Positions 8,123-10,679 of a DNA stretch of 64,000 nt are shown here, in pieces. The notes beneath the pieces are model-generated. The model made no database searches and had not been told where the DNA came from. It saw nothing but the letters and a program-made list of their open reading frames with translations. Position 1 is the first letter of the stretch. Every line of letters begins with the position of its first letter. Both the position numbers and the translations under genes were made by a program. Location: the NCBI RefSeq assembly GCF_054482595.1, contig NZ_CM137008.1; one strand, 5' to 3'.

Positions 8123-8806
8123 ATGAAACGCTCCGCTATAAACGACATTCTCGGCCATACACGGCAATTCTTTTCGCAACATGACGTACATCTGCCGCCC
8201 TTTGCCAGTTTCTCGCCTGCTCAATGGCAGCAGCTCGACACCGCCGCGTGGGAGGAGGTTTTTGATCTTAAACTCGGCTGGGATGTTACCGCTTTTGGTC
8301 GCAACAACTTTGCAGCACACGGGCTGACGCTGTTTACCCTACGTAACGGCTCAGCAAAAGGAATGCCGTATGTGAAATGTTACGCCGAGAAGATCATGCA
8401 TGTGCGCGATGCGCAGGTCACGCCAATGCATTTTCACTGGCGTAAGCGTGAGGACATTATCAATCGCGGCGGCGGTAATTTAATTGTTGAACTGTGGAAT
8501 GCCGATAGTAACGAGCAAACGGCTGATAGTGACATTACGGTGGTGATCGACGGCTGCCGCCAGAAACATACTGCAGGCACTCAGTTGCGCCTGTCTCCCG
8601 GCGAAAGTATCTGCCTGCCGCCCGGCCTGTATCACAGCTTTTGGGCGGAAACCGGCTTTGGCGATGTTCTGGTTGGCGAAGTCTCTTCTGTCAATGACGA
8701 CGACCACGATAACCACTTTTTACAGCCACTGGACCGCTACAACCTGATTGACGAAGACGAACCTGCACAGTTGGTATTGTGTAACGAATACCGCCAGTTC
8801 CGCTGA
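8123..8806 (+). CDS. Cupin-fold sugar isomerase (D-lyxose/D-mannose isomerase-like)
   Basis: 227 aa; cupin motif 1 HFHWRKRE-DIINRG-G and motif 2 G-ESICL-PPG-LY-H; from memory resembles the characterised O157:H7 isomerase Z5688. Confidence 0.7.
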   Translation: MKRSAINDILGHTRQFFSQHDVHLPPFASFSPAQWQQLDTAAWEEVFDLKLGWDVTAFGRNNFAAHGLTLFTLRNGSAKGMPYVKCYAEKIMHVRDAQVTPMHFHWRKREDIINRGGGNLIVELWNADSNEQTADSDITVVIDGCRQKHTAGTQLRLSPGESICLPPGLYHSFWAETGFGDVLVGEVSSVNDDDHDNHFLQPLDRYNLIDEDEPAQLVLCNEYRQFR

Positions 8807-8820
8807 ATAAGGATAACGTT

Positions 8821-9681
8821 ATGCCATTGATTTCTCTCGCTGAAGGGCTGGCACATGCCCGCGAACATCACTATTCGTTAGGTGCGTTTAATGTGCTGGA
8901 CTCGCACTTTTTACGCGCCTTGTTTGCTGCTGCCAGACAAGAACGTTCGCCCTTTATTATCAACATTGCCGAAGTACATTTTAAATATATCTCGCTGGAT
9001 TCCCTGGTCGAGACAGTGAAATTTGAAGCGGCGCGTCATGCCATTCCGGTGGTGTTAAATCTCGATCACGGACTGCATTTTGAATCGGTGGTGCAAGCGT
9101 TGCGGCTGGGATTCAGCTCGGTAATGTTTGATGGCTCCACGCTGGGGTATGAAGAAAATGTCCGCCAGACGCGGGAAGTGGTGAAAATGTGCCATGCCGT
9201 TGGCGTATCGGTAGAAGCTGAACTGGGCGCGGTGGGTGGCGACGAAGGCGGTGCACTCTATGGCCATGCCGATGAATCCCTGTTTACCGATCCGCAACTG
9301 GCGCGTGATTTTGTCGACCGTACCGGCATTGACGCGTTGGCCGTGGCGATTGGCAATGCACACGGCAAATATCGCGGCGAACCGAAACTCGATTTCCCGC
9401 GCCTCGACGCTATCCGCCAGCAGGCTGCTATCCCGCTGGTATTACACGGCGGCTCAGGGATTAGCGATGCCGATTTCCGCCGCGCCATCGAACTGGGTAT
9501 CCACAAAATCAATTTCTACACTGGCATGTCGCAAGCGGCGCTGGCTGCCGTTGAGGCCCGAATGGCGTACCGTCAGCCGATGTATGACGAGTTTGCCGAG
9601 TTACTGCTGGCAGTGGAAGCCGCCATCAGCGATACGGTTGCACAACAGATGCGTATTTTTGGCAGTGCGGGGCAGGCATGA
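8821..9681 (+). CDS. Class II fructose/tagatose-bisphosphate aldolase family protein
   Basis: 286 aa; metal-site motifs VVLNLDHG, GNAHG and LVLHGGSG typical of the FbaA/GatY/KbaY family. Confidence 0.8.
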   Translation: MPLISLAEGLAHAREHHYSLGAFNVLDSHFLRALFAAARQERSPFIINIAEVHFKYISLDSLVETVKFEAARHAIPVVLNLDHGLHFESVVQALRLGFSSVMFDGSTLGYEENVRQTREVVKMCHAVGVSVEAELGAVGGDEGGALYGHADESLFTDPQLARDFVDRTGIDALAVAIGNAHGKYRGEPKLDFPRLDAIRQQAAIPLVLHGGSGISDADFRRAIELGIHKINFYTGMSQAALAAVEARMAYRQPMYDEFAELLLAVEAAISDTVAQQMRIFGSAGQA

Positions 9682-10679
9682 TGGAGCGTAAAGGAATTAT
9701 CGCCGCAGGCAATATGTTGGTTGACCACGTCCATCAGATTATCCAGTGGCCAGAGCGCGGCTGGCTGGCGGAGATCACCCACAGCGAACGCTCCACCGGC
9801 GGTGCGCCGCTTAACGTCCTGCTGACGCTGGCGAAAATGCGCACCGGGCTGCCGTTACAGGCGGTTGGGCTAATCGGTCAGGACAGCGACGGCGATTACA
9901 TCATGGCGATGCTTGAGCAATATCACGTCAATCGTCAGCATGTGCAGCGCACTACCTTTGCCCCGACGTCGATGTCGCAGGTGATGACAGACCCAAGCGG
10001 GCAGCGGACGTTTTTCCATTCGCCGGGTGCAAACAGACTTTTGGATCTTCCGGCGTTCGATCAGCTCGATAACACCATGAAGATTTTCCATCTCGGCTAT
10101 TTACTGTTGCTCGACAGCCTGGATATGCCGGACGATGTTTACGGCACCCGTAGCGCACGCCTGCTGGCGCAAATGCGTGATACTGGCTTTGAAACCTCAC
10201 TCGACCTGGTCTCCCGTAAGGGCGATCCGCGTTATCAGCCGCTGGTGCTGTCCGCGTTGCGCCATCTGGATTATCTGGTAATTAACGAACTGGAGGCCGG
10301 GGAGTTTAGCGGGCTGGAAATTCGGTTACCCAACGGCGAACCGCATATCGCGCATATTGCTGCCGCCGCGCGTGAACTGTTAGATGCGGGCGTGCGCCAG
10401 CGGGTGGTGATCCACTGCCCGGAAGGGGCGTGGGGAGAGACCCCAGAACAGGGCGGCGTGTGGATCCCTTCGCAAAAGTTAGAACAACGGGAAATTATCG
10501 GCAGCGTCGGCGCGGGCGATGCATTTTGTGCCGGATTTTTATATGGCTGCCATGAACGCTGGACGCTTACCGAGAGCATCAAACTGGCACACGCCTGCGC
10601 GCGGGCAAGCCTGTTATGCGCCAATGCCATCGACGGGGCGAAAACGCTGGAAGAGCTGCAAACAGAAATGTCGGATTAA
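9678..10679 (+). CDS. PfkB/ribokinase-family carbohydrate kinase
   Basis: 333 aa; C-terminal signature GSVGAGDAFCAGF and N-terminal TGGAPLNV; start overlaps the aldolase stop (ATGA). Confidence 0.8.
   Translation: MMERKGIIAAGNMLVDHVHQIIQWPERGWLAEITHSERSTGGAPLNVLLTLAKMRTGLPLQAVGLIGQDSDGDYIMAMLEQYHVNRQHVQRTTFAPTSMSQVMTDPSGQRTFFHSPGANRLLDLPAFDQLDNTMKIFHLGYLLLLDSLDMPDDVYGTRSARLLAQMRDTGFETSLDLVSRKGDPRYQPLVLSALRHLDYLVINELEAGEFSGLEIRLPNGEPHIAHIAAAARELLDAGVRQRVVIHCPEGAWGETPEQGGVWIPSQKLEQREIIGSVGAGDAFCAGFLYGCHERWTLTESIKLAHACARASLLCANAIDGAKTLEELQTEMSD

Follow-up and report, generated by a model that had tools for sequence, protein, structure and literature searches.

The OI167 island of Escherichia coli O157:H7 EDL933, which comprises lmvK, lmuXYZIAK and lmvR, was reported by Yang et al. 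(mBio, 2023; PMC10128022) and contains the locus analyzed here, namely the three genes lmuI, lmuA and lmuK at positions 8123-10679 of a 64,000-nucleotide stretch of contig NZ_CM137008.1 (assembly GCF_054482595.1; the whole stretch is referred to below as the window). The scheme drawn for the island (Fig. 3A of that paper) is hypothetical: an aldose is imported by an ATP-binding cassette (ABC) transporter, converted to a ketose by LmuI, phosphorylated by LmuK and broken down by LmuA. On D-lyxose, deletion of lmuI or lmuZYX impaired growth, whereas lmuK and lmuA were dispensable (PMC10128022). Purified LmuK showed 'fructose kinase activities' in an assay coupling adenosine diphosphate (ADP) to pyruvate kinase/lactate dehydrogenase, which is blind to phosphorylation at C1 versus C6 (PMC10128022). 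Furthermore, a manA mutant overexpressing lmvR grew on mannose in a manner dependent on lmuKAIZYX, and the operon was induced by mannose via LmvR, although its part in mannose growth was small (PMC10128022). The metabolic genes were irrelevant to mouse colonization, while LmvK/LmvR activated the locus of enterocyte effacement (PMC10128022); the main published importance of the island is that LmvK/LmvR connect the sensing of mannose with type III secretion in enterohaemorrhagic E. coli, with little contribution from the metabolic genes to growth or mouse colonization. The idea of an aldose–ketose–ketose-phosphate–aldolase route for this locus is thus already in print, together with partial experimental tests. 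What is new here concerns the phosphate-site residues of the LmuA clade, the adjacency of the aldolase and kinase genes across loci and the recurrence of this pair with a different isomerase. In a literature search, no later paper with an LmuA assay or the identity of the LmuK product was found, and the literature on the locus tags of the island yielded nothing further than Yang et al.

Related chemistry has been described in several other systems. In the Embden–Meyerhof–Parnas route of sulfoglycolysis, an isomerase, a PfkB-family C1 kinase (YihV, documented to phosphorylate the C1 hydroxyl) and an aldolase (YihT of class I or SqiA of class II) give dihydroxyacetone phosphate (DHAP) and a three-carbon aldehyde; SqiA cleaves sulfofructose-1-phosphate, the product of sulfofructose kinase (PMC10665668). 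In E. coli K-12, ydjI, which encodes a class II aldolase (PF01116), is followed immediately by the PfkB kinase gene ydjH, the same order as lmuA–lmuK. The annotation of the pair is L-glycero-L-galacto-octuluronate-1-phosphate aldolase and octuluronate kinase, the substrate being a long-chain uronate. The product names of ydjI and ydjH, along with papers from the Raushel laboratory, place the action of YdjH at C1. The L-rhamnose (RhaA/RhaB/RhaD) and L-fucose (FucI/FucK/FucA) pathways also proceed from aldose to ketose to ketose-1-phosphate and then to DHAP and a small aldehyde, but with three enzymes that all belong to unrelated families (the kinases to FGGY, the aldolases to the AraD-like class II group). 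A xylulose-1-phosphate route is known solely as a synthetic pathway. In animal fructolysis, ketohexokinase (KHK), a PfkB-family kinase, forms fructose-1-phosphate (F1P), which aldolase B cleaves to DHAP and glyceraldehyde, as is proposed below for LmuK and LmuA; haloarchaea differ in that F1P is phosphorylated again by 1-phosphofructokinase (1-PFK) instead of being cleaved, and this role of KHK in Haloarcula was presented in 2024 as the first physiological one of a KHK in prokaryotes. A preliminary description of the window, made from the sequence alone, had taken the isomerase–kinase–aldolase triad to suggest an unconventional route of ketose-phosphate cleavage; the adjective was overstated, as pairs of a PfkB 1-kinase and a class II aldolase are known (YdjH/YdjI, and SqiA with sulfofructose kinase).

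The region 8123-10679 is lmuI-lmuA-lmuK, the distal half of lmuXYZIAK in the OI167 island of E. coli, because the annotation of strain XH990, the near-identity of the isomerase to Z5688 and the published gene-for-gene description all agree. Its three open reading frames (ORFs) are as follows.

8123-8806, plus strand: lmuI, cupin D-lyxose/D-mannose isomerase, 227 amino acids, counterpart of Z5688 (NF051472; PDB 3KMH/3MPB)
8821-9681, plus strand: lmuA, class II metal-dependent aldolase, 286 amino acids, predicted ketose-1-phosphate aldolase (NF005284; residue alignment)
9678-10679, plus strand: lmuK, PfkB-family sugar kinase, 333 amino acids (PF00294)

The preliminary description had placed the ORFs at these coordinates, and the identities that it assigned (isomerase, class II metal aldolase, PfkB kinase) were confirmed by profile scores of 438 bits on NF051472 (cutoff 350), 575 bits on NF005284 (cutoff 406) and 126 bits on PF00294, respectively. 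Regarding the translational coupling that it had proposed along the triad, a true overlap of stop and start, four nucleotides long (ATGA), is present only between lmuA and lmuK; lmuI and lmuA do not overlap, being separated by a gap of 14 nucleotides in which lmuA has a Shine–Dalgarno sequence of its own (AAGGA).

The window is part of an E. coli chromosome. Positions 4500-11500 are 100% identical at the DNA level to E. coli XH990, a human urine isolate, and to other isolates; of 5426 complete E. coli genomes, 421 have this stretch, as a single copy. The isolates with 100% matches to the island came from human urine, chicken, pig and duck (XH990, APEC37, W619 and an O157:H16 strain). The RefSeq order in XH990 is phnP, yjdP, a hybrid histidine kinase (minus strand), ABC ATPase, permease, binding protein, D-lyxose/D-mannose family isomerase, 'ketose 1,6-bisphosphate aldolase', 'carbohydrate kinase family protein', a response regulator (minus strand) and yjcS. 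Between yjdP and yjcS there are accordingly the eight genes of OI167 (histidine kinase, three ABC genes, Lyx isomerase, aldolase, PfkB kinase and response regulator). Position, gene content, order and the pathway scheme match the locus of EDL933, the difference being that the window comes from a genome identical over this stretch to XH990 and not from EDL933.

LmuI differs at two of 227 residues from Z5688, the D-lyxose isomerase that was solved from E. coli O157:H7 (PDB 3KMH/3MPB), and this near-identity to a characterized member, together with the profile match, makes it a member of the D-lyxose/D-mannose isomerases (PF07385; NF051472). Activity of Z5688 on both D-lyxose and D-mannose has been reported (van Staalduinen 2010). 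LmuI interconverts D-lyxose and D-xylulose as well as D-mannose and D-fructose, and D-lyxose isomerases have been reported to be active on several further D- and L-sugars (PMC8378251). Z5688 also appears in a transcriptome table as upregulated at 15 °C.

The residues of LmuA carry most of the argument. Conservation was counted over 84 sequences of the LmuA clade, in all of which Asp82, His83, Glu142, His181, His209, Ser212, Asn231 and Thr234 are invariant. These include the three metal-binding histidines (His83, His181 and His209) with the adjacent aspartate, the mobile-loop Glu142 and the ligands of the DHAP phosphate (Ser212 and Thr234), so that LmuA has the full catalytic set of a class II aldolase (PF01116). 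The ligands of the distal phosphate are different. In the fructose 1,6-bisphosphate (FBP) aldolase of Helicobacter pylori the 6-phosphate is bound by Ser49, Arg259 and Arg280 of the partner subunit, the last of which is replaced by Ala257 in SqiA (PMC10665668). At the corresponding positions LmuA has Ala50, Ser237 and Phe258; Ala50, Tyr233, Met236 and Ser237 are invariant in the clade, and position 258 is either Phe (80 sequences) or Leu (four). Ala257 of SqiA aligns with the arginine of a 'DPR' motif, where LmuA reads Tyr-Asp-Glu-Phe, the Phe being residue 258. This arginine was kept in all seven of the FBP or tagatose 1,6-bisphosphate (TBP) aldolases that were aligned (FbaA, GatY, KbaY, the enzymes of Staphylococcus aureus and Bacillus anthracis, and two from Bacillus methanolicus), and it is absent from LmuA, SqiA and YdjI, the last being an octuluronate-1-phosphate aldolase by annotation. 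In FbaA it is Arg331, which is reported from mutagenesis to be important in FBP binding. The position neighboring that of Arg259, occupied by Asp in both FbaA and SqiA, is Tyr233 in LmuA.

By its 6-phosphate ligands, LmuA does not class with the ketose-1,6-bisphosphate aldolases; the loss of the partner-subunit arginine and the pairing with a PfkB kinase place it with SqiA and YdjI. The likeness to SqiA (PF01116; 39% identical) has its limits, since the residue at the Ser237 position of LmuA is still an arginine in SqiA, and the sulfoglycolytic isomerase belongs to another family, the lmu substrates being neutral sugars. Likewise, identity between the ydj and lmu enzymes is as low as ∼40% for the aldolase and 23% for the kinase, and the ydj cluster contains dehydrogenases and major facilitator superfamily transporters, with neither an isomerase nor an ABC system. 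LmuA looks catalytically competent, with a 1-phosphate site by the carbonyl and a distal pocket that appears small, partly hydrophobic and devoid of canonical anion ligands. These residues suggest, but do not prove, that it is a ketose-1-phosphate aldolase instead of a 1,6-bisphosphate aldolase, and this reading gains support because the characterized relatives that lack the arginine, SqiA and YdjI, act on the products of PfkB kinases. A plain FBP aldolase as the favored reading of LmuA was rejected on the residue evidence. On this reading the RefSeq name of LmuA is probably wrong, and NF005284, all of whose clade members examined are without the 6-phosphate ligands, probably over-annotates them with its name 'ketose 1,6-bisphosphate aldolase'.

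LmuK is a PfkB kinase by its profile match, the GG dipeptide, NxxE and GAGD; among 70 homologues Gly41, Gly42, Asn46, Asn203, Glu206, Gly278, Gly280 and Asp281 are invariant and Ala279 is nearly so. It reached no NCBIfam equivalog cutoff, the highest scores being those on IolC (74 bits, cutoff 300) and ribokinase (69 bits), and the model of fructokinase, the fructose 6-kinase (NF006957), gave 45.8 bits where the cutoff is 450. Its sequence matches in the PDB were weak (35-44 bits for YihV, ribokinases and fructokinases, and 23 bits for KHK). The AlphaFold model (predicted local distance difference test score 96.3) has the ribokinase fold, and the nearest structures by Foldseek were ribokinases, YdjH and YihV at ∼20% identity. 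At E ≤ 1e-30 LmuK falls into a PfkB subfamily of its own with 315 clusters. None of its basic residues aligns with the sulfonate ligands Lys27 and Arg138 of YihV, in which it differs from the sulfoglycolytic kinase, and the proposed analogy with animal fructolysis has its own differences, with aldolase B belonging to class I and KHK being only a remote relative of LmuK. A 'GxRT' motif, common to LmuK (Arg110), YihV and YdjH and matching Arg108-Thr109 of KHK, was considered as a marker of 1-kinases; it was rejected because the KHK residues are contacts of the β-clasp dimer, not of the substrate. As a separate observation, residue 101 of LmuK (positions 9978-9980), which lies beside the sugar-contacting Ser/Thr100, is Gln; it is Gln in P0121 and Tyr in P0125, both paired with an aldolase, and Asp in the unpaired P0124, P0131 and P0133 and in the subfamily consensus. 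From the alignment, it may be a specificity-determining position.

The distribution of the genes was investigated in a scan for relatives of the aldolase with one genome per species, from which the best 80 of 130 relatives were used. These best 80 are 75-99% identical to LmuA and occur in Citrobacter, Enterobacter, Kosakonia, Lelliottia, Buttiauxella, Pantoea, Erwinia, Serratia, Tolumonas and others, as well as in a record labelled Yersinia pestis. Mapping with tblastn showed nearly all of the 80 loci (Enterobacterales and Tolumonas) to share the order lmuX-Y-Z-I-A-K, with lmvR downstream; 78 of them gave matches for each of the isomerase, aldolase and kinase. The lmuA/lmuK junction overlaps or spans at most 31 nucleotides in 81 of 83 loci. 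Because both the order and the aldolase–kinase junction are conserved, the triad is a real and widely inherited module and not a chance assembly.

Two variant architectures are informative about the role of the pair. Tolumonas (L096) and a related metagenome contig (L008/L009) have an FGGY gene inserted between lmuZ and lmuI; that of L008 is a true xylulokinase gene, xylB (TIGR01312, 577 bits, cutoff 380), and a close homologue occupies the same place in L096. A divergent gene just past lmvR in the Tolumonas-type module encodes a Mak-like ROK fructokinase (NF007108, 539 bits, cutoff 443). In a second operon type, found in metagenomes, the LmuA-like and LmuK-like pair is kept, and a cupin of ∼353 amino acids resembling mannose-6-phosphate isomerase replaces the Lyx isomerase; the pair is preceded there by genes for an ABC transporter, for an FGGY kinase, in some cases for a fructokinase-like PfkB (L013/L106), for the cupin and for a DeoR regulator. 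The coordinates in the respective loci are as follows.

L008 4994-6439 and L096 7850-9298: xylB of the Tolumonas-type module
L008 9909-10823 and L096 12760-13674: ROK fructokinase gene of the Tolumonas-type module
L013 180-9038, L104 1641-10983 and L106 842-11015: second operon type (range L104-L106)

The preliminary statement that the operon has no FGGY xylulokinase and no second kinase is thus correct for lmuXYZIAK (4617-10679) and does not extend to the related modules, which have xylB, ROK or PfkB genes. Xylulose, the pentose product, thus has a canonical kinase of its own in complete modules, and aldolase and kinase appear as one unit, retained even beside other hexose or pentose kinases. 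As related loci carry a ROK fructokinase or a separate fructokinase-like PfkB, LmuK is unlikely to be simply 'the' fructose-6-kinase of the system.

A scheme with two branches, in which hexoses take a ketose-1-phosphate route, is the best explanation of these data and a plausible one, with a probability of about 0.5. In the pentose branch, D-xylulose would be passed to a xylulokinase (unlinked in E. coli and inside the module in the Tolumonas type) and on to the pentose phosphate pathway. This branch most likely runs via xylulose-5-phosphate and not xylulose-1-phosphate, since growth on lyxose does without lmuK and lmuA, and xylB lies inside the Tolumonas-type module. In the hexose branch, D-fructose, or a close 2-ketose formed by LmuI, would be phosphorylated at C1 by LmuK, and LmuA would split the resulting ketose-1-phosphate into DHAP and an unphosphorylated aldehyde (D-glyceraldehyde if the sugar is fructose). 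LmuK and LmuA would then form a bacterial ketose 1-kinase and ketose-1-phosphate aldolase, i.e. a 'fructolysis' resembling KHK and aldolase B, with a single phosphorylation, in Enterobacterales, a proposal that we put forward tentatively and at slightly below even odds. Regarding the earlier description, which had suggested isomerization, phosphorylation at C1 and cleavage on the logic of fructose-1-phosphate or xylulose-1-phosphate, the general logic survives on the strength of the aldolase residues and the adjacency of the pair, whereas the xylulose-1-phosphate form is disfavored and was rejected as the main function on the published lyxose genetics and the xylB-bearing relatives.

Several points weigh against the two-branch scheme. 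The published LmuK assay measures only ADP and cannot separate C1 from C6 phosphorylation. In the residue comparison, the mapping of Arg259 onto Ser237 uses a constant numbering offset and the S. aureus FBP aldolase and FbaA likewise have no basic residue there, for which reason weight is placed on positions 50 and 258; furthermore, His53 and Lys55, both invariant in the 50-56 loop of LmuA, could in principle hold a distal anion. We know of no dedicated route in E. coli for the D-glyceraldehyde that cleavage of F1P would release. LmuK-like kinases of 42-44% identity either adjoin Lyx_isomer (one beside a GH38 mannosidase) or come directly after a mannitol dehydrogenase, with no aldolase nearby. 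These aldolase-free contexts produce fructose and are compatible with a fructose-6-kinase, and equally with a ketohexokinase feeding 1-PFK, the succession of F1P and 1-PFK known from haloarchaea. The contexts of remote LmuK homologues are mixed, with an aldolase present in L008/L013, absent from L010/L097/L098 and no signal from L011, L014 and L015. Finally, the lmu operon adds little to growth on mannose or to mouse colonization (PMC10128022).

Other explanations were weighed against the same observations. In a conventional operon, LmuK would be a fructokinase forming fructose-6-phosphate (F6P), the host PfkA/PfkB would form FBP, and LmuA would be an extra aldolase for FBP or another ketose-1,6-bisphosphate. 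The score of LmuA above the cutoff of a family named for this reaction, the fructose kinase activity of LmuK (PMC10128022), the remote LmuK relatives in typical fructokinase contexts that have no aldolase, and the presence of pfkB and fruK elsewhere in E. coli are all in line with it. Against these stand the lack of the Ser, Arg and partner-Arg ligands in 84 of 84 clade members, with the DPR arginine in seven of seven FBP/TBP aldolases, and the score of LmuK on the fructokinase model (just 46 bits for a cutoff of 450); moreover, if the aldolase were a redundant one for FBP, its tight linkage to the kinase in nearly all loci examined, and its move with the kinase into another operon type, would be unexpected. 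We regard this explanation as unlikely. A further way to accommodate the FGGY kinase that shares an operon with LmuA and LmuK in both non-enterobacterial architectures is a bisphosphate formed by two kinases: an FGGY, ROK or host kinase would make a ketose-5- or 6-phosphate, LmuK would be a phosphosugar 1-kinase, and LmuA would bind the distal phosphate in a non-canonical manner. The invariant His53 and Lys55 could serve such binding, and the haloarchaeal KHK followed by 1-PFK, together with fruK in E. coli, offers a precedent for a variant in which F1P formed by LmuK is converted to FBP by the host FruK and LmuA has an unrelated role. Free fructose, however, is turned over by LmuK (PMC10128022), the FGGY protein of L008 is a true xylulokinase whose product needs no second kinase, and the enterobacterial operon lost the FGGY gene yet kept LmuA and LmuK; this explanation and its variant are, even taken as one, very improbable.

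The chemistry may also be as in the two-branch scheme but with another sugar, a ketose beyond the reach of xylulokinase and fructokinase, fructose being a side substrate. Candidates are 6-deoxy-D-fructose, formed from 6-deoxy-D-mannose (D-rhamnose) and cleaved to DHAP and D-lactaldehyde, and also D-tagatose, L-sorbose or a heptulose. In the boldest form of the fructolysis-like proposal, the true substrate would be a sugar for which no catabolic route has been described, 6-deoxy-D-mannose being an example. A small or hydrophobic distal pocket with conserved Ala50, Tyr233, Met236, Ser237 and Phe/Leu258 would suit such a sugar, as would the range of D- and L-sugars accepted by D-lyxose isomerases (PMC8378251), the minor role of the operon on mannose (PMC10128022) and the retention of LmuA and LmuK in modules that already have xylB and a nearby ROK fructokinase or fructokinase-like PfkB. 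Against this, fructose is the sole reported substrate of LmuK; mannose induces the operon, whose transporter is similar to one for mannose (PMC10128022), and no linked gene accounts for the disposal of lactaldehyde or another aldehyde. A different true substrate is quite unlikely, less so than the two-kinase arrangement and more so than the conventional operon.

If the residue-based prediction for LmuA holds, the direct cleavage of a neutral ketose-1-phosphate would take place across widespread gut- and plant-associated Enterobacterales, the family name of NF005284, which is present on many genome annotations, would need correcting, and metabolic models would need a branch producing glyceraldehyde or another aldehyde. 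If the prediction fails, the locus would be an ordinary operon from mannose through fructose to F6P with a redundant aldolase.

The operon lmuXYZIAK spans 4617-10679 and is flanked by the genes of the two-component system LmvK/LmvR, which controls the island. The remaining features of the island in the window are as follows.

2242-4503, minus strand: lmvK, hybrid sensor histidine kinase/response regulator, 753 amino acids from the RefSeq start (RefSeq XH990; NCBIfam histidine-kinase matches; name from PMC10128022)
4504-4616, no strand: divergent lmvK/lmuX intergenic region with the promoter of lmuX and the footprint published for LmvR (sequence; PMC10128022)
4617-6137, plus strand: lmuX, sugar ABC transporter ATP-binding protein, 506 amino acids (ORF; NCBIfam; RefSeq)
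6134-7108, plus strand: lmuY, ABC transporter permease, 324 amino acids, overlapping lmuX by four nucleotides (ORF; NCBIfam; RefSeq)
7127-8068, plus strand: lmuZ, periplasmic sugar-binding protein, 313 amino acids (ORF; NCBIfam; RefSeq)
10676-11383, minus strand: lmvR, OmpR/PhoB-family response regulator, 235 amino acids from the RefSeq start (NCBIfam; RefSeq)

LmuX is ∼60% identical to a mannose transporter of Herbaspirillum (PMC10128022). The LmvR footprint was located at −41 to −62 relative to the transcription start of lmuX by footprinting and 5′ RACE (PMC10128022). A consensus scan of 4300-11800 for promoters and terminators gave nothing over the shuffled expectation and no σ70 match within 4504-4616. 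The mechanically called ORF of lmvK (2242-4680) is 59 codons longer upstream than that of RefSeq and would overlap the start region of lmuX; the annotated start at 4503, giving 753 amino acids, is the plausible one. For LmvR, the numbering of Asp54 in PMC10128022 agrees with the RefSeq start. The stops of lmuK (plus strand) and lmvR (minus strand) overlap convergently in the tetranucleotide TTAA at 10676-10679. There is no space for a terminator between the operon and lmvR, and lmu transcription should therefore run antisense into lmvR. Elsewhere in the window, patches of low GC content (0.37-0.41) were observed at 34858-36150, 48936-49439 and 56664-57686, corresponding to espX5 (a type III secretion effector with pentapeptide repeats), two small hypothetical ORFs in the aphA–tyrB gap and a DUF2713 gene, respectively; these three patches are probably old horizontally acquired insertions within the core genome.

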